The notes below the pieces were generated by a model. The model searched no databases, had not been told where the DNA came from, and was given only the letters and a program-made list of their open reading frames with translations. The translations under genes were made by a program, and so were the position numbers. Below, piece by piece: positions 889-63,290 of a stretch of 64,000 nucleotides of DNA; within the stretch, counting starts at the first letter, position 1, and each line of letters starts with the position of its first letter. The DNA comes from Chrysomallon squamiferum (taxonomy: Eukaryota; Animalia; Mollusca), in NCBI GenBank assembly GCA_012295275.1, contig CM022667.1, forward strand, positions 5,952,001 to 6,016,000, written 5' to 3'.

Positions 889-2280
889 TACTCATTTCTA
901 ATCTCAGTGGTTTACTGGACATTCTAGCAGTATTCAGTTTACAAATCCAGTCTGTGACATCCTGATCTGAAGCTTTGTTAATTGTCAGAGAATACTTCTT
1001 AGTTGTTGACAGTCTGCTGTTTGTCCCATCTCCACACTCTACAGAATAACTCTGTCTGTCAGCTGGAGGATTCCACACAGAACACTGATCTGGTTTCTGT
1101 CTGAGTGAAGCCAAAGCCACATTACCACCATCTTTAAAAAATACTATTCTGTCTTGAAGATTTTCAGCACCTGACACTGTACAAGTCAGAGTAAACTGTT
1201 TGTCTTTGACTAAATGAGATGAAGATCCAGACAAAGTCAATGAAACACAATCTGTAAAATAAAATTGAGAAAATTAAAAAAACACAAAAAAAACCAATTG
1301 TATTCATTTATTCAGTTTTTATTTGTTTATTAATTTATTTATGGTTAACATTATTATTCAGTATTTCTAATGTAATTAACTCTATGGTTATTTAAGATAA
1401 TGAGAGAAGTGACATCATCATTCATGGAAAATGATGCTATTTTTAACTGGCAGCAATGTCTGTGTGTGTGTGTTTTAACCACATTGAAAAGAAAATATAA
1501 AGTACAAACTATGGCTATTAATGGTCTTTGATGGGAAAATCATTACATGAAATGCAGCTGGAATGAACACTATAGAAATTGTGTAAAGTGCAGTATCTGT
1601 ACATTGAATTAACAAAGACATATAGTTCTACCTGACTTACTATCATCATGCAGCAGTTGAGCACAAATATAGATCAACAATATTAGAAAAATCTTGTTCA
1701 TGATTGCAAAATGAAAGTTTTTATTATTGTTTTCCCTTCCTATTACAGTTTAGATATATACAGTTTTAGGAAATTTAGTATTTGTAACATTTTGGGGTGT
1801 GTATTCCATTCATGTTGTAAATTGTTAATTACTCTTTAATTAACATAAACATTCTTTTGAAATTAGAAACAAAATTAGTTTTATCTATTGAAATATCTCA
1901 TGAAAAAAGAAAAATCAATACATAAAAACTGATAATAAAAAAAATGATATAATAAGTTAAAACATTTGTTTGAATTTTAGTTATAGTTAAAGATCACAGT
2001 GCAAATGTATATTGAAAATATGTTTCAGTATTACTCCATTCACTAAATATTGAACAATATATATATATATAATGAAACAAAACTCAGGAAAATGCGGCAG
2101 CTATCATACGTATGAATAAAATAATGTTAATTTTCGCAGCTGATAACCAATAAAAATTAAGTGTGAAGAGGTTGGGTTTTATTAAACAGTTTCTGTAAAT
2201 TTACCTGAATACGTAACACTGCTCAAGAAGAAAACCACTAAAATCAGTTTCTTGTCGACTGTAGAAAACATCGTAGACAT
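889..2280 (-). CDS. Gene A (5' part; continues off the left edge): IgSF receptor with V1-type head
   Basis: Signal-peptide exon 2205-2280 (MSTMFSTVDKKLILVVFFLSSVTYS+G, donor GTAAAT). V-like Ig exon 889-1251 (363 nt, phase 1-1, TTTTACAG acceptor, GTAAGT donor; FTLTC...DVTDWIC). Paralogous to genes B and G. Confidence 0.85.
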
Positions 2281-2329
2281 AACTGATTAATTATAAATAG
2301 AGTCAAGGTTTTAAATTAAAAGTTCGGTT

Positions 2330-2800
2330 CTCACAACAAGTTACAACACCTTGGCTTGCATTTCACTTCCTGGTTTCTTCTGTTAAAATGTGTACATCTA
2401 TTCGGTTTTAGTTAATGCAGTAACATCCGATTTTCCATTTGAATTAAAGTCACAGGATTACGGAGAATACCAGTCATGTAAATCTTAGTTTTGACGTTGT
2501 GTTACAAATAGTAGCGATCTTTTGATACAACAAACTAATTTAACTCACAACGAACTTCCACTAAGTTTACTGTACTGAATATGAAAACTAAAACGAGTCT
2601 ACGCATTACCTCTGCTATCAACAGAACGAAGGGTTATGGTCCGGGAAGTGTGTAGACTTGCGTAGATGATCTGAAATGATTTCTATGTCCCGTTACTCGT
2701 TTACCGTCCTTTTTCTTGGTTGACGGGTGTGTGCAGTCAAACGTTAACAACGAACTAATTCTACATCACAGTTAGCACTGAGAATTTGTTTCACAGGTTA
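2330..2800 (-). promoter_or_regulatory. Conserved upstream/promoter block of gene A with ETS core CCAGGAAGTG (about 2364-2373)
   Basis: Colinear similarity with about 17040-17495 (gene B) and 63340-63880 (gene G). Shared words: cacttcctggttt, ttagttaa(t/c)gca, gcgatc(t/a)tttgatac, aagggttatg, ctaattct, tgtttcac. The ETS core lies about 80-90 nt upstream of the ATG in all three. Confidence 0.6.
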
Positions 2801-3860
2801 TGACAACGTTGCATGTATATATATATAATTTTATTTTAATTTGTTTGTTTTGAAACCTAATTTAATATTTTACAAAATCATTTAAATAATTTGATTTGTT
2901 GGGGAAAAAAGACACTAACATTTTTTTTATTTATGAATTATTTAATTATTTATTTATTTATTTTTATTTATTTATTTATTTATTTTCCTTTCATATATTT
3001 TAATTTTATTGTCGTTTTTGAAACTGGGTCTTTGTTAGTAATATACCTTACATCAAAGAAAGGTGCAAGAAAACATATTTTTAGTCGTACAAGGAAAGTA
3101 TAATTTAATTAAATACAAAGACAACTTTTATCTTTACTCATGATGTGAGGACGCAGACTTTTAGGACAGAAATTAACATACAAAATGTATTCTGTCTTTA
3201 ATCTCTTTATGCAGATTATAAACTAAAACCGCACAGTGAGAGTACGAAGCAAAATGTTCAGTTTGGAGGTGAACCAATTTTTCTCAGGTTTCATAATTCA
3301 GATCTCGATTTAATGTGGCTAACTTCATAACAAATTACACTGGTTTTAAATTAGATACATCTTAGATATGAAATGTTAAATAAATTTAGAAAATTGCATT
3401 TACTTTTTTCCTTATATTCGTTTTAATCTTCATTGACGCATGAATTCTGATTTTCACAGGTAAATGTTAAGGTATAAGCAATCCAGCAGGCCGCGTGGGT
3501 CGTTCATTTCGGTTAAAGCCGAGCTTTGTGCAGTTCCACTTCACTAATTTTCAATCTCGTTTGGGAAACTGATTGTCATGACCTTTTTAAGACGTTTATA
3601 TATTCTACTAGAAGTAGAGTAACATATAGTAGTAAAATAACAGTGCGTTGATCTAAACTGCAAAGTTAGAGAAACTGAACATTTCACACCATCTCACCAA
3701 ATAGCTAACAGAAGATTTCTAGCAGCAAGCTCAGTTTTAATTGCGCTGTAACCAGTTCATTTGGAAAAGGATATTCTCTACAGCCTTTATCACTGTCATA
3801 ACATATCTATTTCTCAAATCCAGCCACTACTTGTTTCCAGCCTATTACCTAAAGTACAAA

Positions 3861-3906
3861 CAGATTACTGGATACAGATTACTGGATACAGATTACTGGA
3901 TACAGA
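3861..3906. repeat. 14-bp tandem repeat (cagattactggata) x3
   Basis: Read directly. Confidence 0.9.
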
Positions 3907-5348: not shown

Positions 5349-8300
5349 TCAGCCTGTGACTTGTGAGTTTTCATAGACGGTGAGTACAGAGTATGGTGAG
5401 TCTTTTCTAGCTTCCAGTGATGAGTAATTGTTTGTAGTATCTGTGTTTCTCTCAGTATCTGAAAAATAGTCTTGATTACACAGTTGTACAGAAGTAGTTG
5501 TGACAGTATTTCTAATAAGGTAAAAATGTAACAGCGACGATAGAGGAAACAACAGAGTTGTTCTGTTGTATCCGAGTTCTCTGATAAATCGCTGAAATAA
5601 TATCTTTTTTTTAGAAACTACAACATTTCATCACAGATAGAAACCACAAATGTTAATATAAAACATGAATTATATATACGTCCAATGATTATTTTCCTTC
5701 TTAATAAATGTATCTGGTTATATGTAAAAATAAATGTAAATGCATTTTGTAGATTTTTATGTTTATTTTTTACCCCAGTAACAGATCACATCCTTTACTG
5801 ATAATAAACAATGTAACATATACAAAGTACTGTAACATAACAACAAAAAACAATATTTGTATTTTATATACATATTTCTCAGTTACCCTGAAAACAAAGA
5901 TCACAGACTTACAGACGGTCTGATTTAACCGCTCAGATTCGCAGAAACTGTTTGATCTGTTACACTTTGTATTTATATACTGACCTTGACTTTGTTGAAG
6001 ATCGTCATAGAGAGAAGATTCCTGTACTGCAGTGTTAAACTGTCTGAAACAAACAAACCACTGAGAAGTCGGAAATCTTGGATTTTATTTATTTAAACTA
6101 ATTTAAATTTGTGTGCATTGTTATGTGTAATATTTCCTCCATATTGATTTTCAGTTTGTTTTTTTTAAATTCAAATTTTCCATATCCTTAATATGTCAAA
6201 ATAACGTAATATTTAATTAGAAATGAAAACGGCTGATATTTATTAATAATTAGTCACAAATTTGGTTTTTATTTCTTCCTTAAATTTTTACAACTTACCT
6301 TGATGTGTACGTTTGGTCAGACTTAAACTTTTCTAAAACAAAAATAATATTAAGAATGTTAGAAATGTAAAACAACATCTCTTATTAATATATGTTTTAC
6401 AACAGTTATTTAGAATTCTTAATTATTTACTGTGATAAGCAGGATTAATAATGTTCCAGCATTTGAGGAGAAAGAATTATTGTTTATATACTGTATCTGA
6501 TATCTTTTGAAGACGATAGTGTCTTTGTAAAATTTACCTTTACTCTTCCTGCAGAAAATTAAAACAATTCCTCCAATTAAAAGTTCTGTAGCCAATGTTA
6601 TTCCAATTCCAACACCAATTCCTGTTCCCAGTAAACACTCTTTTCTTTCTGTACTTTCCGAAGATGATGGAACTGAAAAGAATGCGAAAATTCCTGTGCA
6701 ACAGGCATAATACACACATATCTGTTTCGTTTGTTATGTTTTAAGTGCTCTTTTATATAACAGAATACACTAAACATGTAGCGTTATAGATGGAATTTAC
6801 TATGCATAAAGGCAGGATGAAACATAAGCAAACACTTGAGTATGTAATATTCCATTTTTTCATTCACCATTTTAAATTAATTTGTTCCTTCTACAAAAAG
6901 TGGACATAATAGAAATTGTTATATTACTGCAAATTAAAATATGCTCTTCTTTCACAGAAGTTTTGAAACCAACTTTGTTAAAAGCCAAAACTTGAATTAG
7001 ATGTGGATAAACAGCATAAATCAATTCATATTTAAATACTATTCACATTATGTAATATTAAACAGATGGTAAAATAAATTACCAAAAATATATAACTCTT
7101 TTTTTTTTTTCAAAAAAAACTCTTCACTTAAAAAGGTACACAAGTTTAATACAATCATTTATTTATTTCATTTATCACCTTATTTATTTATTTAAATTCT
7201 AAGTGTATTTTTAACAGAAATTAGCTACCTGTTTCATTCAGGGATAATTTCAAGATAAGCTCTTTCCTTGGTTCTCCATTTGACACAGCAACCTGATAGA
7301 TTCCAAAATCTTCTTGTTTGACATTTGTCAGTTTATATTCACCTACAGCAGACACATTTGTAGTGTTTACAGGTTGTATAGATCCAAGACTTTTATTGTT
7401 TACATCTGTGAATTTATACCAGGTAAATGTTGGAACTGGATTGGCAATCACAGAAATGTGTAGAGTTACATTTCCACCTTCTACAGCAGCAAATTTGTCC
7501 TGAACTGTAACTCGATGATCCAGTCTTGGTGAACCTATAGGAAATAATGTTCTTGTTACTAACATACAAATGATAAAATAAAATAAATTTAAATTAAATA
7601 ATTGTATTTAGTGACTTACATGTAACATTAAGCTGCATACTTTGTCTGACATCAGACTTGATGTTGTTTCCTGCTTCACAAGTGTAAAATCCTGTATCCA
7701 GACATTCAGCTTCATTCCAGCTGTACTCCACTGACTTGGAGTTTTTCACTTCACGTAGAATGTGTGAGTTGTTTAACAGTTTGATGTGAGATGCTGGATT
7801 ACTGTCAACTTCACATCTTAGATACGTAGGAGTCAGTTCATCAACTGTTATCTTTGTAGACTTTGAGTTTAAAGTGAAAGAAGTTACTGAAGTCTGATCT
7901 GTAACAAGTAAAAACAATATGTTGTATTTTGTCAAAAAGCGTTCATTATTAAGTAAGAAGGTTTATACTCATGAAGTGGACAATTGTTTTAATCATTTAT
8001 TTACTCGGTTTTTAATTAATCATTTCAATTTTTTATATGTAAGATTACATGCTTTAAATAATTGAAATTAGTCATGGTTCTACAAACGTCTTTGAAGTCA
8101 CTGAACGAAAAGCAGGGTCTACAGGAAATATAATTGAAAACCTGTTCTATAATATCAATCTGAAATAATAAGTGAATATCATGTGAACTCAACCTGAACA
8201 TAATTATATCTATCTATCTGCCTATCTGTCTGTATGTGTAATACAGATTATTTGTAATAGTTAATAATCCCATTTAATGCCAGGAAAATACAGTTAGTTG

Positions 8301-11300
8301 CATTGATAGTGGTAAATGGTTTGGAGGTGATGGTGGCAATGGACAAAGGGGATTAACTCTAGGTGAGTGGCCCAGTCCAGTATAAGCGGCACATACGCCA
8401 GAAATCAGTCGATTCCATTCAACAGCCATTACAGCCACTGCAGAACAAATTCCCACCCACCAACAACATAAATATGAATGTCATATTCATAACACTGTTC
8501 TCGAGTTTTTCAATTTTGCACGGATTAACAGCAACAGAATCCTGTTGACCAGAGCATGAAAGCCAGATCGACAAGATGCCACCATCATCATCGGCATCAT
8601 GATCAAGGACTGCCGGTTGAAAAAAGTAAAACCAAATGAATAACAATTCATTTTCCTACAATATAAAAAATGTAATGGGTTCAGACAATTTATTTTGTCT
8701 CACTAATGGTGGGACACCTAGGGGACATCTACAGAGCAAAGTTTCATGTGGCTCAGGTTAGGTTCCACCTACTGAACCACAGGGAACAGATCCAAGGATT
8801 CACTGAAGTATGCCAGAGGAATCCACTCCACCTTTGGGGCCGAAGGGAAATGGTTCATTCCCACCCATGAATTTTGCCGAGGGGGTTAAGGTAATGTAGA
8901 TATTTGCCAATTCTCTGACTTAAAGGTCAGGAGCACTGACGAGTCACATACATATCATATCATAAGGGCAATCGGTGAGTCTCCAGGGGTCCCAGGTTAT
9001 TTATAAATTCTTCTTTGGAATTTCTCTTGCTTCTCAACTCATATGATAATTAATATACACATTTTTATTTTATTTTACTTTATTTATTTTTTATTTTTAT
9101 TTTTTTTACTGATTTTTTTTACTGATTTATTTATTGAATTTTGAAAAAAATTTATCTGCCAACTTGAACAAAATCTCTTGTTCCTCTTGTCCACTTTACG
9201 ATGTATTACAAAACACATATTTTTATTTGGAATTTGTTGATTCCTTCTAATTTAAACGTTTAAGTTTGTATAAACATGAGCTATGCAACTCTTGTTTTCA
9301 TTAAATTCATTCATTTACGTTTTTACACAAACTAACAGGGTAAGAAAGAGAAAATAATATATACATTTTTAAAATTTATATATTTTTTAAACAGCTAAAC
9401 TGAACATTATTACAGCTGTGTACCTCAAAATATTAAAACTTCAAAATAACTATAAACATTATAAACATGAATCTGATTTTGACAAATCTTTTACAACTGA
9501 ATCTTTTGCCACCATTTTCATTTCTTTCTTTTTGTTTCTGCTTCTTCTTTTTTCTTCTTTTTCTTTCTTTTCAACTAGTATAATTTTAAAAAAGTATTTG
9601 TATAACGTTGTTTTATTTAATTAGTATTATTTTTTTTTAATAAGTATATAATATATAATATTTTTCTATAAGAACATTTTTCATTTCATTATACATTTAT
9701 ATATTTGTCAAAACATTTCTTAATGTTAAAGTATAAACCCTATTTAGGAAATCAAATTCTGTAAGTTTACTTACATTGAACATCCAAGATAACAGTTTTG
9801 TTTTTTGACTTGTTTGTGTTTACATTGGTGACAATACACACACAGACTCCAGCCTCTGTTCTGTGTATTTGTGTAAAAGAAAGTACGTCATCGTTTATTT
9901 CCTTTGTCTGACACTTCCACTTGTAAGAGCAGACTTCACCACAGTCTGCCTCACACAAAACAGCCACGTTTTTACCTTCTACTATCTGTACTGGTGAACT
10001 TCTGTTCAGTTTAACGTTTTCTGGACCATCTGAAAATGCAGTTAAATTAATTAATAATTATTGCTCTCTGTATTAAAACAGTGTACATGAATATGTGTGT
10101 GAGGGTGTGTGTTCCCAAAGAAGAGAGAAATGTTTTATTTAATGATCATGAAGACAAAGAAAAGAAAACAACATACTTTCAAGTGATTAATTTTTGTGTT
10201 ATTGTTTTGTTATTTTTTTTTTTTTTTTACCAATTTTAAGTAACAAAGTACAATGCATAAAAAGGGTTCAGTTATCAAGGATCTCGTACTGTTATTATTT
10301 GTAGCAGTGGAATACTCTATTAGAAAGTGGACACATTTTATTGTTCTTCACAAAATATTTTGTTTTAATGTGTGATCAAACAAATTTTTAAGACCGTATA
10401 TGCATTTCTAAACAAAGACATATGTTATTTTTCATTTCTCTAATAATCCTGTTTTAATACAAATTAAACAAAAGCCAGATTATTGCTGCTTCTACAAACA
10501 GCCTTCAACTTTTGTTTTTCTTTGTAAATATCAAGCAAATTCAAAGAAACATATGCAACTGTCAGTATGTCATCTTAATTAAATTCAGTTTGTGATGCAA
10601 GAAAACTGAAATATGCAAATATTTTTAACAATACTATTTTTTTGTTTTATTTTGCATAGAGCTATTACTGGACATCTATCAACAACAACATCATCAACAT
10701 TAACAACAACAACAATAATAATAATAATAATTAAAATAATTATATAAAATAATTTGAAAACATACAAAAAATTAATTTAGATCAATTATAAATACATAAA
10801 TTTCTAAGATTATTTTTAAACAAAACTCACAGTATACTTTCAGAGTGAAACTTTTAGTGAGAGATTTGGCTGAGACTCTGTTAGTCACAGTACATGTGTA
10901 CTTCTGTCCTGTCTGGTTTCTTCTCACATTTGTAACACTGACCTGAGACCCTGACTCAGTCTGTTGATTGTTAAGTGACCAGGAAAACAAACATGGCGGC
11001 TTGCAGACAGCAACACAGTTTACATTCAAATCATCTCCTTCTTCAACATTTCCTGGTGAAGTCAGCTCTACACTGTCTGGTCCACCTAAAAATAAAATAA
11101 TAATACTTCAAATAATAACAATAATAATAATAAAAAATAATAAAAAATACTGCTACTACTACTACTAATAATAATAATAAAAAATTTAACATGTGATCTT
11201 TTAATTTGCTAAAGATAACTTCCATTAATGACCATATGTTAAGGTGTATATTACATTTGCTGATATGTAATATGCATTAGAATAAACAATTACTGCTTTT

Positions 11301-13597
11301 ATAACAAAAAAATGTTTTCTAGAACTATGCTAATTTTTAATTTCAATGATGGTTTAACCTGAGACAAAAGTTAGAAATGCAAGGTAAGACAAAGACCCCA
11401 GTCAGAAAACTGTATAGGACAAAAGACACTCCATACTGTTTCTCATCTGAACTTTTGAATTGTTTCCATTTTGTAAAATCTGTCAAGATTATATCATTAA
11501 TATTTTCAATTTAATTTTTTGGGAGTGAGAATCTATATATTATTTATTTGTAATCTTAGTACAAAGTGCTTTCGGAAATTATAGTCAGTTTTCAAAGATA
11601 CATTATTATGCTTTGATATAAAATATCATTTGAAACTGTATCCTTAACCCTAATTATGATTATTAGTAATTAATTATGTTGGTTAAACATATTAAATTGA
11701 TGAACATGCCATTATTATTCTGATTTCGATAAAGAGATGTAGTATATATAATTTAGGCAGTTTGTAGCAGAGCTATCTATGGGTGGGCAGTTTGTCAAAC
11801 ATTGTTTAGTGTTGTTTTTCTCTGGGGGCTTTTGTTCTACAAAAATCCACTGAGGAAGCTTATGTCCTACAAACTATTTAACCTTATATATATATATGGA
11901 CACTTGCTTGCACATATATACACATACACACACATATATTCTCAGACCTCCTTTCATGTACACAATCACAGACAAACAAGATTTTCAGAATGGCAGATTT
12001 TTTGAGCTCGAGCTACAGGTTTGTAGTCATGAAAAAAAAAAAAAAAACTATTTGACTGAAAACTAGCACTATTTGTAAATAAGAGATTATTATGAAGTAG
12101 ATCTAATTTTCTGAAATGCACCATTATTTTTATCATTATTTAATGTATTTGAACCTAGTAGTTAATAATACAAATTAAACTTGACACTAGTATAAACTAA
12201 ACTATTAATAAACCTAAACTCTGATTATTCACCTGTGTTTGTTTGGTGATCAGCTGTTTTACTCCTGTACAAGTATTAATTATATTGTACACCTATTTTT
12301 TTTATTCTTTAATAAAATAGCAAAATAAATATCAACTATTTATGAGCTGATACAATTTTCTTTTTTTCTTTTCTTTGATCGTCTTGCAATACTTGAAGTT
12401 TATCAAAGTGGAATTGATATAATAGCAAAAAAAAAAAAAATAATTAAGTAATTAATAAAAATAAAAATAAAAATAATAATAATAAATAACATTAGAATAA
12501 TTATAAATCAAAAATGTCTTTCTTCCTTGTTCATTTTATTAAAACTGTACAAAGAAATGTATATTAACATTGTTCAAAAATGTATACAATACAAATGTCC
12601 AAATATATGTACATTAACACTGTAGAAAGAAATAATTTTGACATTACACAGATATATGTATATCAACATTGTATAAAGATATATTTATTTCAGAGTAATC
12701 AATGGATGGGTCATTTTTCTTCAAAGCAAACAAAAATAGCACATCAAAACAGTACATGATAGTCTATGATCTTCAATTTTCATAATGATTATCATAATGA
12801 TAATAACAATAAACATAATAAACAAATCTTAAAACAAATTATATTAAAAAAAAAAGTATGATTCTTTCAACATATTACAATTAATCTAAAATTGTGCTGC
12901 CAATCAGATACACTAAATTTAATTATTATATTTATCATTCACTGTTTCAGGGAATATAGTTTAATTCATTTTATGAATACATTTTATTTTCTTACTACAA
13001 ATAATATCTTTGTTATAAAAATATAATTATTTACTTACTGCTCATTTCTAATCTCAGTGTGTTACTGGACTCTCCACCAGTATTCAGTTTACAAAACCAG
13101 TCTGTGACATCCTGATCTGAAGCTTTGTTAATTGTCAGAGAATACTTCTTAGTGGTTGATAGTCTGCTGTTTGTCCCATCTCCACACTCTACAGAATAAC
13201 TCTGTCTGTCAGCTGGATAACTCCACACAGAACACTGATCTAATTTCTGTTTGAGTGAAGCAAAACTCCCACTACCACCATCTTTAAAAAATACTATTCT
13301 GTCTTGAAGATTTTCAGCACCTGACACTGTACAAGTCAGAGTAAACTGTTTGTCTTTGACTAAATGAGATGAAGATCCAGACAAAGTCAGTGAAACACAA
13401 TCTGTAAAATAAAAGATAAAATCTTTGTTTTCAGTATATCTGTTTCTTCTTAGTTTCTCAGATTGTTTCTTCTTCTTTTTAATAACATTATCATTCAATT
13501 TTTAATTTGGAAACTATTTAGTATCTGGTTATTTCACAAAATAAGTATTTAGAGGGAGTTGTTCATTTACAATATTTCATTACACTAAATCCAATTA

Positions 13598-21229: not shown

Positions 21230-21263
<34 letters not shown>

Positions 21264-21440: not shown

Positions 21441-21472
<32 letters not shown>

Positions 21473-21497
21473 TAATAATAATAATAATAATAATAAT

Positions 21498-21532
<35 letters not shown>

Positions 21533-46541: not shown

Positions 46542-46580
<39 letters not shown>

Positions 46581-46585
46581 TAAAC

Positions 46586-46624
<39 letters not shown>

Positions 46625-51996: not shown

Positions 51997-52027
<31 letters not shown>

Positions 52028-55000
52028 TTCTTTTAATTTAGTGTTTTCATACATGTGAGTTGAGACTTGCTTTCATTTCTTTCTTTTTTTTTTTTGTTTG
52101 TTTGTGGTGGGAGGAGTGTTGTTATGATTTTGTTCTCTCATTTTTCTAATTGTATTAATTTATTTTTATTAGTTTGCTTTTATTGTAATAACTATCTGCA
52201 AAAAGTTATATTAAAATAGATTTAAGTTCTTTTCATTTTCTGTATTGTAGGTTCATATAGCTTTCTTTTTTTTTTCTTTGTATTTTTTTTAATGTAATTC
52301 GTCAATTAATCCAAAAAGATGAAATTAGATAAATATTATTTTGTATCACTGTTCAGTTATGGTAGCTGGTCTATTTCACATGAAATGGTATGTTGCTAGC
52401 TACATTTGTTTTAATTTAGATTTCTTTTTTGTAAAATGCATCAGCTGAAAAACAGAAAAAATGAAAACAACAAAACAAGATAAACATTATTTTATATCAT
52501 GACTTTCTGAAAGTAAATATTCTTGTCTTCTTTGGTTTAAGCAAGAGTTTATATGTAGTGATATATGATTTGCTAATCAGAAATGAATACAAAATGAAAA
52601 TGGTAAGGAAGGAAAAAACTGGTATGTACAACAAAAAAACAAAAACTAATACAATTGGAGATAAAACTGACAGAGACACCTGTTTCTGCTAAATCTATAT
52701 ATAATAATGTCAGAATTAAATACTTTCATTGTTCATAATTGTAATACACAATCCACTTATCAACAGTTTCACTTTGGTGATTCCTAAATAATTGTACAGT
52801 AAAATGGACGCCACTGAAAAGCAGTAGGCTGATTGGAATAACTGTCTCACTATCTACATGAGTTAATCCACAGAAAGATTGTGATTTGTTTAAAATGTTT
52901 CATGAAATTCAAAATAAAAACCTCACTCACTTCCTAGAAGTGGAAACTGTTAATAAAATTGGCTGAATAATATTTATTTTACAGTAAATTTATAATTTGA
53001 AGAAATGGATGAGAAGAAGAGAGGGAGAAATAAAAAGAGAATGGTTAAATCATTTGAAACATTTATCATTTGTAATTGTGTTGGACAAATAGTAATACCA
53101 GATGATAAGATTTTGATCACCAAATAATAAAATCCTTCTTTTCATTTCATTATTTTTTATTATTTTTTGTTTCAACTATTCTCTACAGATAGATATGTAA
53201 ATATGTTTTAGGCCAGATTAAAAAAAAACCCAGCTTACTGGAAATATTACCAACATTTGCAAGCCTTGTTAGTTAAAAGAGCAAATATAATATCTGGTTA
53301 TAATCCGGATTTCACTCTTTAATTTTTTTTTTTTTTTTTTTTTTTATTCATTCTTTTCATGCCTATTGTTTTCTTTTTTCTTACTTTTTTTTTTTTAATT
53401 ATTAATTATTTAAAAAATAATATTACCGTAAGTTCAATAGTTCTAATCAGTAATTATAATTAATGTAGAGCTTAAACATAACCATTAAATAATGCTGATT
53501 ATAATACAATTAAAGAGAAACCAATTCTAAACTATCACAGCTATGAATTGCAATCAGAAAATTAGTGTATTCATGCCCAAAATCAGTACTGATCTGACAT
53601 TGTTATAGAATGTTCCTGTTTTAAACTGTCAAATGATAATCATCTTTTTGTCATTGCCTTTCACATTCAGATGGTCCAGACAGTGTCAGACTGAGTCCAT
53701 CATCACCTGGTACAGTTGCAGAAGGTGACACACTGACAGTTACCTGTACTTCTCTCTGTAATCCTGCATGTTCCTATTCCTGGTCAATCAACAATCAAAT
53801 ACGTTCTACAACTTCTCAGTTAACTCTGCCACACATCAGTAGACAACAGACAGGTGAAATATATAAATGTACAGCAAACAACCCGACTACATCAGTGAAA
53901 AAATCTAAACAGTTTCAACTCTATGTTTACTGTAAGTATAATTCAATAAATCTTCTTTGTAGAACATTATCTGTTTTCAAACAAACATTTAACCAAATCT
54001 GAGAAATATGATTTCAGTCCTACATATTTAGAAGAAATGTTTATCAGAATTGTGAATTGATGTGTTTAGAACAAATATTTGAATTAAGCAGTTTTGTTAA
54101 TTTCACAAATTTATGTATTAGTTATGTCTTAGATCGGAAAAAAGTGTTTTAATGTGTTTGTGTGTATATGTATTTACTAAAAAAATACAGTTATTATTTT
54201 ATAAGATATAGTATTCATCTATGCATGTATATATGTAAATGTTTTTCATAGAAATGCTCGAAACTCCATATAATAGTACTTTATAATCAATTCTGTATAT
54301 CACCATTTGTCAGCCATGTAACAAACCATCACAAATATGAATTTCAAAGTGATAAATCATGCTGAAATTTACACTTGGTGCATGATGTGTGCTACACTCT
54401 CTTTGCCAGTCTAATTTATTTTCATATCAGCTATACCTTCATCTTCTCTCCCCTTTCCTGTTCTTTTTTTCCCTTTGCTTTAAAATTACTCACTTTGCAT
54501 TGCCTTTTTGGTCCTTAGTTACAAATGAATTACACACAGAAATGGAATAATTTTTAGATCTGATGCAAACTGACATTCATATGCATGTGTATGATGTTTA
54601 TAAATTAAGGAACTCTATTTACATATTTACTGTGAATTCTGATTTACCGAACCGAGCTCCCCATTTTGAGGGGTTTTATGTGCGTGTATATGATCCTGGG
54701 TGAAAGATCTTACACATACATATACAGAAAGGTGTATCCCTGTCAAAAGGCCATATGTGACATTACTTATTTATTTATTTGTTTTTATTGTTATTTTTGA
54801 TCAAAGTTCATTTATTGAAATTATGGTTATCTTAATTGAGATTAAACTTATTCCCAACGTTTTATTATTAATTTTCTTTAATAAAGAAAGAAATGTTCTA
54901 CTGAAGATAATAGATCATTTGTTACACAGAATGGAATTCACTGGCTATTTCTATATCCAATCCAGTGTCAGTGACTGGTCTGATGATAACAATGGTAGGT

Positions 55001-56531
55001 GATGTAGAACTAAAACTCAGTTAAACATTTTGCAATCTATTATAAGTTAATAAAATAATTATCTTGTATAAAAATATTTCTTTTTCATTTTCCATGCTAA
55101 ATGCCTGTTAAATATTTTCAACCTTTATGCAGCAGTGTAAACCTTGCAGAAATGGTAGAAAGTCTAACATGATTCACTGGTAAGAAAAAGACCATGTATT
55201 TTGCAGTGCTCATAAATTGTTTTAAATAAAAAAAATAGGTTAAATGTAACTGGGATGATAATGTGTTTTACCGTGACTTAATTTTGCTCATTAATATTCT
55301 TCTGTTTGACTTTTCATTTGATGAAATCTTCTCCAAACAATTTTACATCATCCACTTCTTTTCCTACAGACTTTTCTCTTGAGGATATTCCTTTGAAATA
55401 GATCAAAATTGCAGAGATGTTTGAATAGAATCACATAATGTCTGAAAAAGTAAATATTGTCAGTAAACAGAAATAGTTTCTCAGATAAATATAGTCTTGT
55501 TTTTTAAGCCTGATGTCATCTTGCTGATATAAAAATTATATCTGCACTAATGTTGAATGAAAACAAGTTATATGTGAGTGACTGAACATGGGTTCATTTA
55601 AAATATATTCCTAATAAAATCGGTATGTATAATTTTATCATTTACCTTGGAAGACAAACACCAGATCTCTTCAGTCAGACACTACCACTGAACTATGAGC
55701 TGCATTCTGATGTCCCTATTATGAGACATGATAAAAGTTATATAAATATGGTGAAATAAGAACAGAAATGCATCAAAACATAAATATATTAGCACATGAC
55801 AGGCATCATAGAAAATAATTATCTTCTTGCATGGTATTTGGAGTTACTCAGCACTGCTGGCTTTAATATGTTCAAATATATGAAATGACACAAAAATGCC
55901 TATAATCTGTCAAGTTCACCCAAATGGAACATTATTAATGTTTTGTATTTAATCATTTTAGTTTATTAATACTTTCTTGAGCACATGTCTTCTTTACCAA
56001 CGTCACAGAATTGTCTGACAGATTAAGATTGTTGGGGTTTTGTTGTTCTTTTGGGGGCTGTTTTTTTCAGCACAGTCTTGATACTATTTATATGCTATTT
56101 TACTATTAAATATCAAACAAAATTGTAATAGGTCCAAAAGCCTAATTTGTTTTATTCCTGTTCTAAACCCAAGAGATATGACTTGCACATGTGCATTTTA
56201 AATGACTCTTTCATCAGAAATAAAATGGATCTGAAATAGCTATAATATCAAAATAATAGTTTACCTGGTATTACTGTTTAATAATAAATACAGGTGAGAC
56301 TACTATATCACTTGAGTGTAAGTACAACAAGAACACAGCATGTAAAATAACTGTAATATTAAAATAATAGATATACCTGATATTTAATAATAATTACAGG
56401 TGATGGTACTACAACACTTGACTGTATGGGTGGTGGACAACAAGGACACAGTACACAGTTGGTGTGTAAAATAACTTGTTCAGTCACCAGTGGAATCATC
56501 TTCATAGCACCAGGAGGAAGACAAAATGTAA
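50936..56531 (+). CDS. Gene F (5' part; runs into gap): SP-V2a-Ig2-V2b; probably the 5' half of gene D
   Basis: Exons: SP 50936-50993 (MFLRVFSGVILVISLVSVK+G), V2a 51544-51849, Ig2 53671-53931, V2b 56400->56531. All in phase 1. Confidence 0.82.
51195..51575 (+). repeat. About 107-bp tandem repeat carrying four copies of the V2 splice acceptor and exon start
   Basis: ataataattacag|G(C/T)GAG(A/G)CTACTACAA with exon-start positions 51224, 51331, 51438 and 51544 (the real one). Two copies each at 28499/28392, 41121/41228 and about 56294/56400. Confidence 0.9.
51597..56524 (+). repeat. Near-identical direct repeat of 36420-41352 (offset about 15.17 kb)
   Basis: Landmark offsets 36673->51849, 38501->53671, 41228->56400. 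Introns match nearly base for base apart from homopolymer lengths and a few substitutions. Confidence 0.92.
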
Positions 56532-56731
56532 NNNNNNNNNNNNNNNNNNNNNNNNNNNNNNNNNNNNNNNNNNNNNNNNNNNNNNNNNNNNNNNNNNNNN
56601 NNNNNNNNNNNNNNNNNNNNNNNNNNNNNNNNNNNNNNNNNNNNNNNNNNNNNNNNNNNNNNNNNNNNNNNNNNNNNNNNNNNNNNNNNNNNNNNNNNNN
56701 NNNNNNNNNNNNNNNNNNNNNNNNNNNNNNN
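56532..56731. other. Assembly gap (200 N)
   Basis: Fixed-length N run; gene orientation flips back across it. Confidence 0.99.
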
Positions 56732-59700
56732 TTTTACAACAAGATCTGTTCTTTTTTCCCCATTTGACACAGCAACCTGATAGATTCCAAAATCTTCTTG
56801 TTTGACATTTGTCAGTTTATATTCACCTACAGCAGAGACATTTGTAGTGAATACAGGTTGTGTAGATCCAAGACTTTTATTATTTACATCTGTGAGTTTA
56901 TACCAGGTAAATGTTGGAACTGGATTGGCAATCACAGAAATGTGTAGAGTTACATTTCCACCTTCTACAGTAAAATATGTATCCTGAAATAAAACTCGAT
57001 GATCAAGCCTTGGTGAACCTGTAGAGAACAAATTATTGTTATTGAGACGAGAAGAGAAAAAAAGTAAAATAATAATAATGATAGAAATAATGTTCTTTAA
57101 TGACATACATGTAACATTAAGCTGCACACTTTGACTGACATCAGACTTGATGTTGTTTCCTGCTTCACAAGTGTAAAATCCTGTATCCAGACATCCAGCT
57201 TCATTTCAGCTGTACTCCACTGACTTGGAGTTTTTCACTTCACGTAGAATGTGTGAGTTGTTTAACAGTTTGATGTGAGATGCTGGATTACTGTCAACTT
57301 CACATCTCAGAGACATAGGAGTCAGTTCATCAACTGTTATCTTTGCAGACTTTGAATTTAAAGTCAAAGATGTTATTGAAGTCTGATCTGGAACAAGTAA
57401 AAACACTGCAAAGTATTTTGTTAAACACATTTGAACATTAAGTAACGAATATTTTTGCACATTCAGTAGTTATAATCATTCATATTTGGTTGTTAATAAA
57501 TCATTAAATTGTTTCATATATAACATGATATGTTTAAAAACAATGTTAAAGTTCTCTTGAAAGCGTATGTATTTATTTTAAAAAGCAGAAAACAGTTTTA
57601 CTTTTCACAGATTGTATTTCTGTGTTAAAAACCAAATCAGTGCTTTAAAGGAGTCTCTGAATTCAGGTGGCATTCTTGATGTTTTAACTCTAAACACCAG
57701 TGTTGAATTTTAGCAGATTCAGAAGTATGTGGATGTCACACAGTGAAGCAAATTTGAAAGAAAAATAATCAACTAATTGAAATTAATCATGTTCATAAAA
57801 AACAAAAAAATGAAGTCCTTGAAGGAAAAGCATATGCAGTTAATGAATTGATGAAGAATGTTCTAGAGACAATGTAGTTAGAAACAGAGTCTACAAGATA
57901 ACAACTGAAATTCTCCTGTGTAATGTCAGACTGAAATAGAAAAATAAAAATATAAACATCATGTAAACACAATCTGAAAATAATTGTTTATGTATGTATG
58001 TATGTATGTATATATGTATGTACGTACGCATGCATTGTTGGCTGTTTATACAGCCTGAAATAAAGCATAAGTCACTTTTAAGTTATTTACATTTAACAGT
58101 GATTAGCATATAGTAAATTTAAATCATCGACTGTTATCTTTAAAGACTGAGTCTAAAGTCAAAGATATTAATAAACCATGATCTGTAAGAAATAAACAAT
58201 TACTGAAAATAAAAAATGTGTTTGATAGACAATTCTGGTAAAACACGTTTTACAAGTCTCCAACAGTTGAACTGATTTATTTTGAGGAAGAACTACTAAG
58301 CTAACAGGATGACGTCTGAATTTAAAAATTGTTATAAGTTCCTGTTTGGTATTTTTCTTTCTTCCTCTATTTTTCTTCTCTTTTTTTTTCTTTTTAATAT
58401 AACAAGTCTATATTTATTTATTCATTCATTTATTTATTTATTAAATTATCTATGTTTTGAAATAGGTAAACTGAACATTATTACCCTTGCATATCTCGGA
58501 TAATATAAGAACTCTAAAATCAGTAAAAATATTATAAATGTGTTTTGACAAAACTTTTAGAATTGAAACTTTTGTCACCATTTTCCTGTCTATATGTTTC
58601 TTTTTTCCCCCTTTTTCTCCTTCGTTTTCTTCTTTTTAACTTGTATATATATATATTCTTATACATATATATTCTTTTTCTTTTAATAAGCTTTACCTCT
58701 TTCTTTAATTTTGAGTTTTTAATGTGTATAAAATACAGTATATTTATTCAAGAACATCATTCATGTCATTATTTATTTCTATCTTTGTTAAACAGATATT
58801 AATGTTCAAGTACAAATCCTTTTTGAAAATCAAATTATCTATGTTTACTTACACTGAACATCCAAGATAACAGTTTTGTTGTTTGACTTGTTTGTGTTTA
58901 CATTGGTGACAATACACACACAGACTCCAGCCTCTGTTATGTGTATTTGTGTAAAAGAAAGTACAGCATCGTTTATTTCCTTTGTCTGACACTTCCACTT
59001 GTAAGAGCAGAGTTCATCACAGTCTGCCTCACACAAAACAGCCACGTTTTTACCTTCTACTACCTGTACTGGTGAACTTCTGTTCAGTTTAACGTTTTCT
59101 GGACCAACTGAAAATGAAAATAAATCATTTGGTTTGCTTTTTTCTTATATGATAATAGTAATAGTGCAAATAATAATAAAAATAAATAAATAAAATAATT
59201 GTGCTTTCTCTCTATGTTAAATTAATAAATAAAATAAAAAAACAAAAATAGTCTAAATTTTATAATACTTATTACTAATTCTTTCACACGCACACATACA
59301 TACACATACCGAAAATGTACCTTTAAATTATTAATAAAACATGTGTTTAATAGTTCTTTCATTCTTCATATTTTTACTGTTTGAAATAAATGATTAAAAT
59401 ATGATAATTTGCAAGAAAAAATGTTAAAATGTACAATTGTTCAAAAATGCCAATTTAGTTCAAATTACTTGTTTAAAATACTGAAACTAATCTTTGTTTT
59501 ATACATACATACATACATGCATATATACATATATAAAACAGTATTTTATTGATTTATTCTGCAGATTTATCACACTGCTAATAGTAGCTAATAATACAAA
59601 GATAATTAACAATTTAGCACTGACAATAATAATTTAAAATAATTTGAAAACATAAAAAATTCATTTAGATCAGTTATAAATAAATAAATTTCTAAGATTA

Positions 59701-59978
59701 TTTTAAAATTAAACTCACAGTGTACTTTGAGAATGAAACTTTTACTGTTAGTCACAGTACATGTGTACTTCTGTCCTGTCTGGTTTCTTCTCACATTTGT
59801 AACACTGATCTCAGACCCTGACTCAGTCTGTTGATTGTTAAGAGACCAGGAAAACAAACATGGCGGCTTGCAGACAGCAACACAATTTACATTCAAATCA
59901 TCTCCTTCGTCAACATTTCCTGGTAAACTGAACCTAACACTATCTGGCCCACCTGAAAAAATAAATAATAACAACAAA

Positions 59979-60029
<51 letters not shown>

Positions 60030-60276
60030 CATAACATAACATAACATAACATAACATAACATAACATAACATAAACAATAAATATAAGTATGCACATTGA
60101 ATAGGACACAACTTGCCCATCTGAAACAATATTATAAATTACAATATTATAAATTACTTGTCACTCCATGTCATCTAAGCAATTAAAGTGAATATTGTGA
60201 AGTCAGAACAGTATTTCATGCGGAAAGTTTATATATATATATAAAATGTGTTTAATAATAATAATAATAATAATAA

Positions 60277-60307
<31 letters not shown>

Positions 60308-61362
60308 AAGAAGAAGAAGAAGAAGAAGAAGAAGAAGAAGAAATAAAAAGAAATAAAATACACTATAAAATAAACATAAAATAAACACATAATAAACACA
60401 TAAATATGAATAAAACCAGTGAATTTATTTTAGAGTTTCTTGGTATTTATTTTGTAATGAATTTTTCCATCCTTTCAGGTTAGACAAGATTTGGGCCCAA
60501 TCTAAATGATTATAAAAGGTTAGAGAACACCAGACATGTACACAGTTAATTATTTCTGTGGTATAAAAAAAATATAATCCAAATAATACAAGAATGTTTA
60601 ATATATATTACATATTATATATAAGGTATACCTATTTTTTCAATTATTTTAATTTTTGATTCCAGAAATGCAGTTATATAAATTAATTATGATTTAAACA
60701 AATCCTAAGTAAAATATGAATACTTTTTATTTTATTACTATAAATAACATCTTTCTTATAAAAATGTAATTATTTACTTACTGCTCATTTCTAATCTCAG
60801 TGGTTTACTGGACATTCTAGCAGTGTTCAGTTGACAAAACCAGTCTGTGACATCCTGATCTGAAGCTTTGTTAATTGTCAGAGAATACTTCTTAATGGTT
60901 GACAGGCTGCTGTTTGTCCCATCTCCACACTCTACAGAATAACTCTGACTGTCAGCTGGAGGATTAAACACAGAAAACTGATCTAGTTTCTGTCTGAGTA
61001 AAGCAAAACTCACACTGAAACCATCTTTATAAAATATTATTAAGTCATCAAGATTTTCAGCACCTGACACTGTACAAGTCAGAGTAAACTGTTTCTCTTT
61101 GACTAAATGAGACGAAGATCCAGACAAAGTCAGTGAAACACAATCTGTAAAATAAAAGATAAAATCTTTGTTTTCAGTATATCTGTTTCTTCTAGGTTTC
61201 TCAGGTTTTTTTCTTCTTCTTCTTCTTTTTCTTCTTCTTCTTTTTAATAACATTATTATTCAATTTTTAAGTTGGAAACTATTTAGTATCTAGTTATTTC
61301 ACAAAACAAGTATTTAGAGAGAGTTGTTCATATACAATATTTCATTACCCTAAATTCAATTA

Positions 61363-61415
<53 letters not shown>

Positions 61416-62668
61416 CAATAACAATAACAATAATAATAATAATAATAATAACACCTCTTTTATGTCTGAAATGAACACATTTCTAGAATGACAACTGCAT
61501 CAAGTAGAAAATATATTACAGAGATATATGATAGAGTTCAGTATGTGCACTTTGATCAGGTAGCAAATATACTTTTGTTACAGTACTTCACAATGCCAAA
61601 TAATTTTAGATAGTTAGCTATCGTCATGCATAAACTTTGAACAAATGCAGAGCAATGATATTAGAGAAAGCTGGTGCTTGTTTGTCAACGGAAAGAGGTT
61701 TTTTGTTTTGTCTTTTTCCTCTTATATATCCGTTTGAAGAACTTCAATATCTGTAACAATGGAAGTTCCGGTAAATGGGGTTTGAGGTTTGTATGTTAAA
61801 TAATTAATAAAACTTTCATTAAAACAAGCATTTTTCTATGAATTTACTAACAAAATTAATTTTATCTACAGGATATGTGTTCTCGTGGGAAATTGATACT
61901 TATTAATATATTACAGTGTAATCTGTTTTATTTTTAAACAAGTCTGAAATTTTGCTATTGTTTAGTTTTATAGAAAAGAGTGAACACAGGATTCAGAAAC
62001 AGTAAAACTGAAACGTGACTACTTTGTGTTGTATCCTCCCATCCCACTTGTCACACATCTTACAACAACACAGCTGAGTGAACTCCTAACTACCTGAGTG
62101 AACTCCTAACTACCTAGAAAATAGCAATGAACTCCCGTCTGTTAAGACAGAAGAACAGAATCTGTATTCTTAACCATTTATTATAATATAGTCAGCCACA
62201 TAACATATTAGTGGTATGAATTATTAAATCATATTTTGTAAATATAAGAAAGACACATCTAGCACTAGGATGTATATCAATATATACAAAGTTCAGTTGT
62301 TACATTAATGTTACAGAGGTTTGATTAGTTAGATCCTAAGCTGAGTGTGGGAGATAACTCTTTCTACTGCCTGTCAGTATATTTATCCCTAGACTCTATA
62401 CAGACATAAGAAAATAGTAATTAAACTGATTCCTGTAATATCATTAAAAGATTCTTTGATTAAATTATTATAAATATTTTAGCACATAACACATTTGAGA
62501 GAGTTAAAATGAAATAATAAGAAAATATTTGTTATTAAAGTTATTAAAGACTAAAGATCAAAAGTGTATCAGAAATGGGCTATATTTCTATGAATATTTG
62601 CTAAGTAAGAATAAAGAAATTATCATCGGTGACTAATAATATTATTTATTTATTTACGTATGTTATTT

Positions 62669-62743
<75 letters not shown>

Positions 62744-63290
62744 TGTTGTTATTTTCTTGTTGTTATTATTACGTTAATGATGATGATGAAAAAACTAAAA
62801 TGTGACCAAAATTACGCTTGATCAGTAATGGATGTTGTTTAAGTATGATCAGTTGAGTAGGCTTAAACAACATCCGTGACTCAAAATTAATAAAAGTATC
62901 TAAACTGCAATCAAAGAGGAACACTGGTCTGAGTACGTCACATGAATCAGATTTTAATTTTTACTTTTCAGAGAAATATCTTTTAATCACAAATATGAGG
63001 CCGATAATTGATAGTTTTTATTTAAATGTCAAAAATGTATCAGATTCATATGTTTCAGTATAACTCTATTCACTAAAACATTAACAAACATAAAATTAAA
63101 ATAAGTAAAAGGAGGTAGCTATCGTGAGTCAGAATAAAAGTAAAATACTTTTCACAGTTGATAGGCAATCAAGATTGAGCTTCAAGTAGATTTTTACAGT
63201 TTCTGTAAATTTACCTGAAAACACAACACTGTTCAAGAAGAACACGACTAAAATCAGTTTCTTATCGACAGCAGAAAATATCGCAGACAT
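56732..63290 (-). CDS. Gene G (3' end in gap): SP-V1-Ig2-Ig3-Ig4(nonsense)-Ig5; truncated receptor or young pseudogene
   Basis: Exons: SP 63215-63290 (MSAIFSAVDKKLILVVFFLNSVVFS+G), V1 60782-61144, Ig2 59719-59952 (21-nt in-frame deletion vs B), Ig3 58853-59107, Ig4 57109-57387 with TGG->TGA at 57206-57208, Ig5 57018-<56732. Confidence 0.8.
59977..60340. repeat. Compound microsatellites (AAAT)n, (ACATA)n, (AAT)n and (AAG)n
   Basis: Read directly; source of the CYVML and poly-L ORFs. Confidence 0.9.

Follow-up and report, generated by a model that had tools for sequence, protein, structure and literature searches.

A tandem cluster of type-I immunoglobulin-superfamily membrane protein genes with predicted V-set domains and ITAM-like tails in the mollusc Chrysomallon squamiferum

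Clustered, fast-turning receptors that carry V-set immunoglobulin (Ig) domains and tails with immunoreceptor tyrosine-based activation or inhibition motifs (ITAMs, ITIMs) are known chiefly from vertebrates, to which a cnidarian has recently been added. CEACAM proteins combine an N-terminal V-like domain with C2-type Ig domains, a transmembrane (TM) segment and tails of the ITIM (CEACAM1) or ITAM-like (CEACAM3) kind; they lack FN3 and, in the N domain, the canonical disulfide, and their fast-turning gene clusters include many copies specific to a lineage. LILR/KIR, SIRP, Siglec/CD22 and fish NITR genes form tandem birth-and-death families as well, with variable distal Ig domains on a conserved stalk, and such leukocyte receptor clusters share the ITAM/ITIM logic, pseudogenes and gene conversion between paralogues. 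To our knowledge, only single genes of such receptors have been studied in molluscs. Here we analyse 64,000 nucleotides of the genome of the snail Chrysomallon squamiferum (contig CM022667.1, positions 5,952,001 to 6,016,000; this whole stretch is called the window, and coordinates refer to it). The window carries a tandem cluster of genes for type-I membrane proteins of the Ig superfamily (IgSF), a family that is transcribed and spliced. The family is uncharacterised and is a new example of an already known kind of receptor. On balance, and with moderate confidence, we read the cluster as a lineage-specific repertoire of immune-type recognition receptors, a function deduced from the dynamics of the family and from its motifs.

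In organisation, the nearest invertebrate analogue appears to be the Alr system of Hydractinia, which we compare by description only. The part of the Alr report drawn on here describes 41 clustered IgSF genes and pseudogenes, which combine a V-set domain 1 with I-set domains and an FN3-like stalk piece and, in several tails, have an ITAM or ITIM (PMC9546547). Alr proteins belong to a cnidarian, have atypical Ig sequences and act in colony fusion, whereas the snail is a solitary animal and four of the five Ig domains of its proteins are recognisable by Pfam. Among molluscs, type-I IgSF signalling receptors are described from the oyster, and again the comparison is by description: CgIgIT2 consists of five Ig domains, a TM segment and an ITAM (PMC11999971), and CgNCAM1 of three Ig domains, FN3, a TM segment and two ITIMs, binds molecular patterns associated with pathogens (PAMPs) and recruits SHIP2 (PMC11841013). 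According to the sections of the two papers used here, the oyster proteins bind microbes or PAMPs and signal via ERK or SHIP2-p38, which shows that receptors of this kind work in molluscan immunity; in contrast to the snail genes, they are described there as single genes and not as a diversified tandem repertoire (PMC11999971, PMC11841013).

The layout of the window is plainly eukaryotic, with short open exons within long AT-rich introns and many microsatellites. Its list of stop-to-stop open reading frames (ORFs) contains recurring sets of exons of ~85-120 codons each on both strands, and we counted seven units: g0, g1, g2, g3, g4+g5, g6+g7 and g8. The unit plan starts with a leader and a V1 or V2 domain at the N terminus, continues with four Ig domains (Ig1 to Ig4) and a single FN3 domain, and ends in a TM helix and a ~65-residue tail, which is encoded by three small exons (c0, c1 and c2; 34, 59 and 107 nt in g2). 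Every domain exon is of phase 1 with AG/GT borders. The sole unit that is complete inside the window, and also intact, is the V2-type gene g2 (20004..28805, minus strand), established by exon join and Pfam. Joining its 11 exons yields an uninterrupted coding sequence of 2094 nt for 697 amino acids (aa), and 10 of 10 introns are GT-AG. These exons are the leader (28805..28745, MFLNVFSGVILVISLVSLVK), V2 (28392..28084), Ig1 (26258..25998), Ig2 (25524..25267), Ig3 (24448..24170), Ig4 (23036..22731), FN3 (22162..21863), TM (21435..21316), c0 (21035..21002), c1 (20711..20653) and c2 (20110..20004). A preliminary description of this DNA had proposed six to seven adjacent paralogues on the plan signal peptide, V, four Ig, FN3, TM and tail; exon models and Pfam bear this out, with g2 alone complete and five to seven units independent.

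We identified the domains by profile and by predicted structure, and IgSF membership, defined as an Ig fold by either route, follows from Pfam and from AlphaFold2 (AF2) with Foldseek. Seven of the eight Ig1-Ig4 exon translations of g1 and g2 pass the Pfam gathering cutoff (Ig_2, Ig_3 or I-set), the eighth being Ig2 of g1, which scores 21.6 bits with Ig_2 against a cutoff of 27. The FN3 exon reaches 41.1 bits with fn3 (cutoff 25), V1 lies exactly at the cutoff of the Pfam family 'ig' (21.8 bits), and a Pfam scan of V2 gave no match. Both N-terminal domains are predicted to be V-set, a fold defined as a nine-strand sandwich with C' and C'' strands and a B-F disulfide. The AF2 model of V1, built from a small alignment of 9 rows, has a predicted local distance difference test score (pLDDT) of 93.7 and displays extra C'/C'' strands (47-52 and 55-60) between strands C and D; that of V2, built from 7 rows, is fair (pLDDT 79.7). 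When these models were compared with the PDB using Foldseek, antibody VH/VHH domains came out on top for V1 (TM-score 0.72-0.80) and VL/VH/VHH domains for V2 (0.5-0.65), and T-cell receptor V domains were also among the top matches for the V tips. The PDB is dominated by antibodies, and we take these matches to indicate a predicted V-set fold, not kinship with antibodies. The cysteine pair of strands B and F is invariant in the alignments (C23/C103 in V1, C22/C86 in V2). Between V1 and V2 an alignment is barely possible (26% over 73 residues, E 0.006).

The tail is the second conspicuous element of these proteins. In g1 and g3 it reads ...[QN]TYTSRQFNT[AG]VQESSLY[DE]DLQQ[SN]QDT[ED]..., and g2 is near-identical; the motifs in the window are SLY[DE]DL, N[NK]YSSL-x7-YSVL and VYEN. 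YSSL-x7-YSVL is found in all three open tails of the window and fits the ITAM pattern Yxx[LI]-x(6-8)-Yxx[LI], and SLY[DE]DL and SPYSVL fit the loose ITIM consensus [SIVL]xYxx[ILV], as matches to a consensus only. We aligned 11 tails, three from the window together with four of a type A and four of a type B from the deep-sea vent snail Gigantopelta aegis. They have a C-terminal module in common, N-x-Y-[SE]-[SG]-L-x-[AT]-R-x-D-[SAT]-P-Y-x-x-[LM]-x-[VL]-Y-[ED]-N, in which YxxL-x7-YxxL is strict in 7 of the 11 tails, ends in M in three and has the second Tyr replaced by C in one, and in which Y[ED]N is present in 11 of 11. An additional site, LY[DE][DE][LM], occurs in 7/7 type-A tails; type-B tails lack this first ITIM-like site. 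The core YxxL-x7-Yxx[LM]-x-[VL]Y[ED]N is kept between both snail species. By their known specificities, tandem SH2 domains of the Syk type bind paired pYxxL sites, Grb2 binds pYxN, and SH2 domains of Src-family, Nck or p85 proteins are suited by acidic pY[DE][DE][LM]. A tail-only search that started from the G. aegis model P0023 found three proteins among 40 candidates, all three from G. aegis. An Atlas search with residues 610-707 of the same protein led to SCIMP, opalin and poxvirus A36R-like proteins (best score 0.86), and we do not use it as evidence. As a side observation, another G. aegis protein, P0024, carries four tail signalling modules in tandem. Ahead of the tail, the predicted TM helix of g1 (…ITLATELLIGG…, 6585-6600) and of g3 (~32760-32780) contains a glutamate, and that of g2 (…ITLFAILLIGA…) does not; the charged residue in g1 and g3 could mean pairing with a second membrane chain.

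To compare rates along the protein, we used numbers of nonsynonymous (dN) and synonymous (dS) differences per site. Same-type pairs of V1 and V2 domains have a dN of 0.065-0.147, with dN/dS of 1.10-1.64 in six of six pairs, and same-type pairs of Ig2 and Ig3 have a dN of 0.014-0.043 at a dS similar to that of V. On these small counts, the V domains change 3-5 times faster than Ig2/Ig3, in line with the variable distal domains noted in the preliminary description. By eye, the changes cluster, in V1 along the C-C'-C'' stretch and within the FG loop, in V2 along the BC and C'-C'' stretches. The V domains appear to change faster and are possibly under positive selection, which these figures do not prove.

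The remaining domains have a mosaic history. Identity to G. aegis proteins is 45-49% for V1 (six listed proteins) and 47-56% for V2 (five), 44-62% for the best matches of Ig1/Ig2, 64-69% for Ig4, 64-73% for FN3 and 74-78% for Ig3. When V1-type and V2-type genes of the window are compared with each other, Ig1 and Ig2 are 46-51% identical (aa) with dS >1.1, whereas Ig3 and Ig4 are 83-97% identical with dS of 0.02-0.17. A stalk described beforehand as nearly invariant is so for Ig3 (91-97% aa identity in the window), and less so for Ig4 and FN3 (83-87%). We then inferred a maximum-likelihood tree of Ig3+Ig4 with 21 rows, three being window genes and the others the 18 G. aegis proteins, out of 32, that span Ig3+Ig4. 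The three window genes form one clade (100/99), and V1-type and V2-type genes of G. aegis intermingle in another (86/86), in its inner groups too. Ig3-Ig4 groups by species and not by V type, as would be expected from gene conversion or from one 3' half having been re-used repeatedly; the pattern points to gene conversion as the probable mechanism. V1, V2 and the tail seem to be old and the Ig3-Ig4 stalk young. The family would have evolved by repeated duplication and decay, with gene conversion keeping Ig3-Ig4 alike within each species while old V/Ig1/Ig2 lineages persist.

The family is large, and in the searches made its closest relatives are predicted G. aegis proteins, which number dozens. 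Searching longer proteins with the Ig4 exon gave 31 matches, all of them predicted G. aegis proteins (38-69% identity), and 17 of the 31 sit on one G. aegis contig of 53.39 Mb. With V2, a word-based search found one G. aegis protein (56% identity), and a full HMMER search over 1.84 billion representatives found 95 clusters at E <=1e-3, 53 of them at <=1e-10. The origin of 20 of the 95 was looked up: 16 are from G. aegis (14 on the same contig), three are unnamed ENA records and one is from the abalone Haliotis cracherodii. An Atlas search with V2 led to unnamed mollusc clusters (0.94-0.95), which we regard as a lead only. No oyster protein was among the matches of the V2, Ig4 and tail searches, with 20 of the 95 HMMER matches of V2 looked up. 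As far as the databases show, the family appears to belong to the lineage of Gigantopelta, and an abalone adds a single distant V2 relative; this is narrower than the invertebrate family of the preliminary description. Orthology one to one with a characterised gene, which that description had set as the finding that would speak against it, was not seen: the 31 Ig4 and three tail matches are all paralogues of G. aegis. None of the 132 database proteins that we fetched is encoded by the window, the top tblastn identity being 65%. P0023 (707 aa) and P0013 (696 aa), two RefSeq models of G. aegis, follow the same domain plan. Some V2 clusters carry four to six tandem V2 domains, and the V2 domain and the tail module seem to be re-used in other architectures. 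Separately, we observed six tandem V2-like domains in the G. aegis protein P0033 (636 aa) and four to five in P0034 and P0035.

The automatic names of the G. aegis matches (nephrin-, hemicentin-, syg-2-, CEACAM-, twitchin-, DSCAM-, contactin- and IgLON-like) are misleading, and labels of the nephrin, hemicentin and CEACAM kind had been anticipated from the DNA. Among solved structures, the best sequence relative of the G. aegis orthologue P0023 is CEA (E 1.1e-34, in three stretches over Ig1-Ig2), and further relatives are contactin-2 (8.4e-16), CD22 d6-d7 (1.7e-14), CEACAM1 (1.9e-13), CEACAM6 and titin. The snail proteins are like CEACAMs in their V tip, Ig repeats, tyrosine tail and cluster dynamics as well as in this match to CEA. 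They differ from them in that V1 and V2 keep the B-F cysteine pair and an FN3 domain is present; the tails share no sequence and there is no orthology. The similarity is limited to Ig1-Ig2 against the A/B domains of CEA, and the snail family is a separate expansion in a mollusc, not a CEACAM orthologue. With the leukocyte receptor clusters, the snail genes share the family dynamics and the CD22 match; unlike them, they have an activating-type motif in their own tail beside YxN and not on an adaptor chain, and an FN3 stalk, and within the window we saw no activating form paired with an inhibitory one. Nor are they fibrinogen-related (FREP) or IgSF-lectin proteins, which are secreted molluscan effectors with a fibrinogen or lectin domain at the C terminus: Pfam detected no such domain in the window exons and in four G. 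aegis homologues, and a TM helix and tail are present. The words immunoglobulin, hemicentin and nephrin do not occur in the full text of the vent-snail genome papers PMC7736800, PMC7895826 and PMC7142155. A description of the family was not found in the literature searched, a search that most subscription journals lie outside.

Expression and family size were assessed with contigs of two DNA runs (X1, X2) and two RNA runs (X8, X9), which were aligned to positions 4500-9359 only. The joint 7532/7618 was found in four contigs of the two RNA runs (three in X8, one in X9), one of which spans Ig3 and Ig4 over 406 nt, and the joint 5458/5985 in three contigs of the two runs (two in X8, one in X9). 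Both are GT..AG on the minus strand and match the predicted Ig3-Ig4 and c1-c2 introns of g1, the former after an allowed shift of 2 bases; both are absent from the contigs of the two DNA runs. Spliced transcripts, named as a test in the preliminary description, were found accordingly, and the family is spliced and expressed. In the bin of the TM exon of g1 (6444-6605) no RNA contig was found, from which we draw no conclusion. Of the words sampled from the g2 region, fractions of 0.16 and 0.13 occur in the two RNA runs, a weak signal. At a single site in the c2 exon, contigs at least 90% alike number 15 distinct ones in X2, 12 in X1 and 5 in the RNA run X8, and these counts show many distinct copies per individual. 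In the DNA runs, the exons Ig3, Ig4, c1 and c2 reach a summed depth 20-100x that of the flanks; summed depth is not copy number. In apparently single-copy intron parts of g1 (4605-5321 and 6030-6916), we observed that X1 contigs differ from the window at 34/717 and 42/887 positions (~4.7%) and by many small gaps, and that one X2 contig differs at 3/690. The X1 divergence reflects either high allelic divergence or an unrecognised paralogous locus.

How many of the seven units are independent depends on the assembly. The window contains two gaps of 200 N, one (36220..36419) at the centre of an inverted repeat and one (56532..56731) between g7 and g8. The segment 28364-36219 is an inverted copy (85-97%) of 43287-51359, and 36420-41359 and 51596-56531 form a direct repeat that is 99.1% identical over 4.95 kb, each block abutting an N gap. 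Part of the copy number could be an artefact, in which haplotypes or mis-joined contigs were set side by side, and we regard this as quite conceivable, although we lean against it. Both blocks of the 99.1% repeat stop at N gaps and the large inverted repeat is centred on one, as such an artefact would have it; yet the arms of the inverted repeat differ by 3-15%, g5 has three private lesions, g0, g1, g2, g3 and g8 are all distinct from one another, and independent DNA runs hold 12-15 distinct tail-exon contigs. Because of the 99.1% direct repeat and the gap-centred inverted repeat, the independent units number five to seven, and one or two may be assembly duplicates; an artefact could take away one or two units at most, not the whole family.

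The other units are as follows, all by exon model. Unit g0 (889..2606, minus strand) has its leader at 2606..2549 (MRRLVLVFIFSTVNLVEVR) and its V1 exon at 1251..889, and the rest of the gene leaves via the left end of the window. The V1-type gene g1 (5349..13401, minus strand) comprises V1 (13401..13039), Ig1 (11085..10831), Ig2 (10029..9775), Ig3 (7898..7620), Ig4 (7534..7229), an FN3 remnant (~6992..6931), TM (6672..6538), c0 (6332..6299), c1 (6043..5985) and c2 with the stop (5458..5349). About 60 nt of its FN3 exon are left, and the frame is open from V1 to the stop when this remnant is skipped; a leader-like stretch (~17190-17370) is degenerate, with a 10-nt deletion and without an ATG. 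Unit g3 (31518..35818, minus strand), whose 5' part is lost in the gap 36220-36419, is open from Ig2 to the stop, with Ig2 (35818..35561), Ig3 (34906..34628), Ig4 (34129..33824), FN3 (33549..33250), TM (32838..32719), c0 (32531..32498), c1 (32257..32199) and c2 (31627..31518). On the plus strand, g4+g5 (36420..48093) is a single, disabled unit with one V2-Ig1 pair more than the plan; its exons are V2 (to 36673, its 5' end lying inside the gap), Ig1 (38501..38761), a second V2 (41228..41536), half an Ig1 (to 42762), Ig2 (43692..43949), Ig3 (44608..44888), Ig4 (45387..45696), FN3 (45982..46281), TM (46731..46850), c0 (47038..47071), c1 (47313..47371) and c2 (47984..48093). The order V2-Ig1-V2-(half Ig1)-Ig2 amounts to a gain of domains, and no leader for the second V2 was found in the 1.2 kb upstream. 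From Ig2 onward, g5 is a ~97% inverted copy of g3; besides retaining only half of the Ig1 exon, it has a 2-nt insertion in Ig3 (44822), a 5-nt insertion in Ig4 and a destroyed Ig4 donor. Also on the plus strand, g6+g7 (50936..56531) consists of a leader (50936..50993, MFLRVFSGVILVISLVSVK), V2 (51544..51849), Ig1 (53671..53931) and a second V2 from ~56400, which enters the gap at 56532. The V1-type unit g8 (56732..63620, minus strand) is disabled; it has a leader-like exon (~63560-63620), V1 (61144..60782), an Ig1 that is 7 codons shorter (59952..59719), Ig2 (59107..58853), Ig3 (57387..57109) and an Ig4 that runs from 57018 into the gap. In its Ig3, TGA (57208..57206) stands at a conserved Trp codon that is Trp in all other copies, and the leader ATG reads GGA. 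None of the lesions of g5 lies within a homopolymer. Three of the seven units in the 64 kb are pseudogenes or damaged copies, and the domain gain and loss and the disabled copies of the preliminary description are all visible: the extra V2-Ig1 of g4+g5, the loss of FN3 in g1 and the lesions of g5 and g8.

If the family is a repertoire of immune-type receptors, the fast-evolving V tip, held out by Ig1-Ig2, would bind a microbial or host-surface ligand, and clustering of the receptor would let a Src-family kinase phosphorylate the tail. The YxxL-x7-Yxx[LM] pair would then dock a tandem-SH2 kinase of the Syk type, the adjacent [VL]Y[ED]N would dock Grb2 and the LY[DE][DE][LM] site a further SH2 protein; where the -2 residue is S, as in the window species, the sites could also recruit phosphatases of the SHP/SHIP type. 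Several findings weigh against this reading. Upstream acidic residues, which belong to the classical ITAM consensus, are missing from the ITAM-like motif, and type-B tails end its second half in M. The -2 residue of the ITIM is not conserved: the window has S, and G. aegis mostly has A, which occupies both sites in three type-A tails and the second one in the fourth; because of this the inhibitory reading has no support from conservation. Of the tails first described as ITIM+ITAM, both motifs are present in the window and the ITAM-like core with Y[ED]N is kept across species, but the ITIM part is not; the tail looks activating (ITAM-like plus a Grb2 site) rather than ITIM+ITAM. The V dN/dS values stem from 4.5-6 synonymous differences per pair, with the pseudogenes g5 and g8 included, and relaxed constraint is a possible source of them as well. 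The variable V positions are not significantly enriched in loops over strands (12/58 versus 15/62, Fisher p 0.67; 8/43 versus 18/59, p 0.25). The RNA runs are unlabelled metatranscriptomes, and most RNA contigs aligned on g1 are only 90-99% like it, probably being paralogues, so that expression is shown for the family and that of g1 itself does not follow. Finally, besides CEA, CEACAM1 and CD22, the nearest solved relatives are adhesion molecules (contactins, NCAM, IgLON, SYG-2).

This last point leads to a different function, that of an adhesion or cell-identity code of the nephrin/SYG-2, IgLON, contactin or Dscam kind, in which paralogue-specific binding, homophilic or heterophilic, would serve tissue organisation or neuronal wiring and the tail tyrosines adhesion signalling (Nck/Grb2). 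We consider it possible, if rather unlikely. The Ig and FN3 plan would suit it, as would the solved relatives of P0023, which include Robo1, MDGA1, IgLON5, NCAM2 and SYG-2 (6.3e-9) next to contactin-2; adhesion receptors, too, contain YxN and acidic YxxL sites, and tandem arrays of adhesion genes are known in molluscs, for example the octopus protocadherins. However, CEA is the best solved relative, followed by CD22 and CEACAM1, the two snails lack one-to-one orthologues and the stalk tree follows species, three of the seven units are pseudogenes or damaged, the V domains are the fastest, with dN/dS >=1, and the paired YxxL-x7-YxxL motif is conserved. Nephrin and SYG-2, as proteins of the IRM group, are encoded by conserved one-to-one genes and have 8-10 Ig domains. 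The snail proteins resemble them in Ig repeats, one FN3, a TM helix and a tyrosine tail, and because this plan is alike, many automatic labels are 'nephrin-like' or 'syg-2-like'; but five Ig domains, dozens of paralogues, an unrelated tail and a weak match to SYG-2 place them outside the IRM group.

Within the immune-type reading, which we continue to favour, more ambitious versions are less secure. That the cluster represents an independent variable immunoreceptor system in a mollusc lineage, with two ancient V-set lineages selected to diversify on a stalk and an ITAM-like/Grb2 tail homogenised by gene conversion, and that it sorts pathogens from chemosynthetic symbionts, is a speculative proposal that we think doubtful. 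Slightly less probable still is a special case in which the receptors serve as a symbiosis tool and recognise or police the chemosynthetic bacteria that live in relatives of this snail. It would accord with the occurrence of the family, apart from one distant Haliotis V2 match, in a snail that the relevant sections of its hologenome paper describe as endosymbiont-bearing (G. aegis, PMC7895826), and with transcripts in runs filed as metatranscriptomes; yet the recognition receptors treated in those sections are PGRP, TLR, FBG, CLEC and others, not Ig receptors (PMC7895826), and the taxon restriction may only reflect which genomes are present in the databases.

A role in biomineralisation, with ectodomains shed or secreted into the shell or sclerite matrix, is very improbable. 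The excerpted parts of one study list 'hemicentin-1 isoform' and 'immunoglobulin domain-containing protein' among the expanded families of C. squamiferum and report Ig+FN3 proteins specifically in the sclerite proteome of this species (PMC11871041), and on that partial account the expanded families may be the same genes under other names; but all open copies have a TM helix and a conserved signalling tail. Hardly credible, finally, is the allorecognition role that had been offered as an option beforehand, with polymorphic homophilic self markers like those of the Hydractinia allorecognition complex (ARC): clustered IgSF genes, a V-set tip, an FN3-like stalk and ITAM/ITIM tails make a formal analogy with what part of its description reports (PMC9546547), and the contigs of another sample are ~4.7% off the window in single-copy intron parts, but this divergence may come from paralogues and solitary gastropods neither fuse with nor reject conspecific tissue, which leaves the idea without a biological basis.

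Around the genes, the window is AT-rich, with a GC content of 0.26-0.31 in 4-kb bins; the genomes of C. squamiferum (34.5%) and G. aegis (37.5%) are both above the 26-31% of the window (PMC7736800). A 20-bp minisatellite of 12.9 copies and long (AAT)n runs were observed in introns and flanks (14340-14584; 13598-13716; 21441-21556; 61363-61451), one (AAT)n run lying directly upstream of the acceptor of the g2 TM exon. At 51199-51572, 3.5 copies of a 107-bp unit (95% matches) lie directly upstream of the g6 V2 exon and overlap its start; the unit contains the acceptor and the first ~30 nt of a V2 exon fused to a short V2-like piece. Between the genes, an ORF of ~70-80 codons is kept in both arms of the inverted repeat (30172-30384, minus strand; 49325-49570, plus strand). 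Eight intergenic ORFs scanned with Pfam, including 30172-30384 and 4291-4518, gave no family. By eye, the translation of ORF 4291-4518 (plus strand; …FQHDN…PIEHAW…) presumably resembles the C-terminal part of a Tc1/mariner-type transposase, with no Pfam match. No tRNA gene was found in the window.

Together with its G. aegis relatives, the locus offers a gastropod example, compact and tractable, of V-set tips that diversify on a signalling stalk kept homogeneous. Two species have both V lineages and the tail module in common, the stalk bears the signature of concerted evolution, and pseudogenes as well as domain gain and loss are visible within one stretch of DNA. The sequences can be used to ask whether ITAM-Syk/Grb2 signalling operates in lophotrochozoan immunity, what the V domains bind and whether repertoires of this kind are tied to symbiont life.

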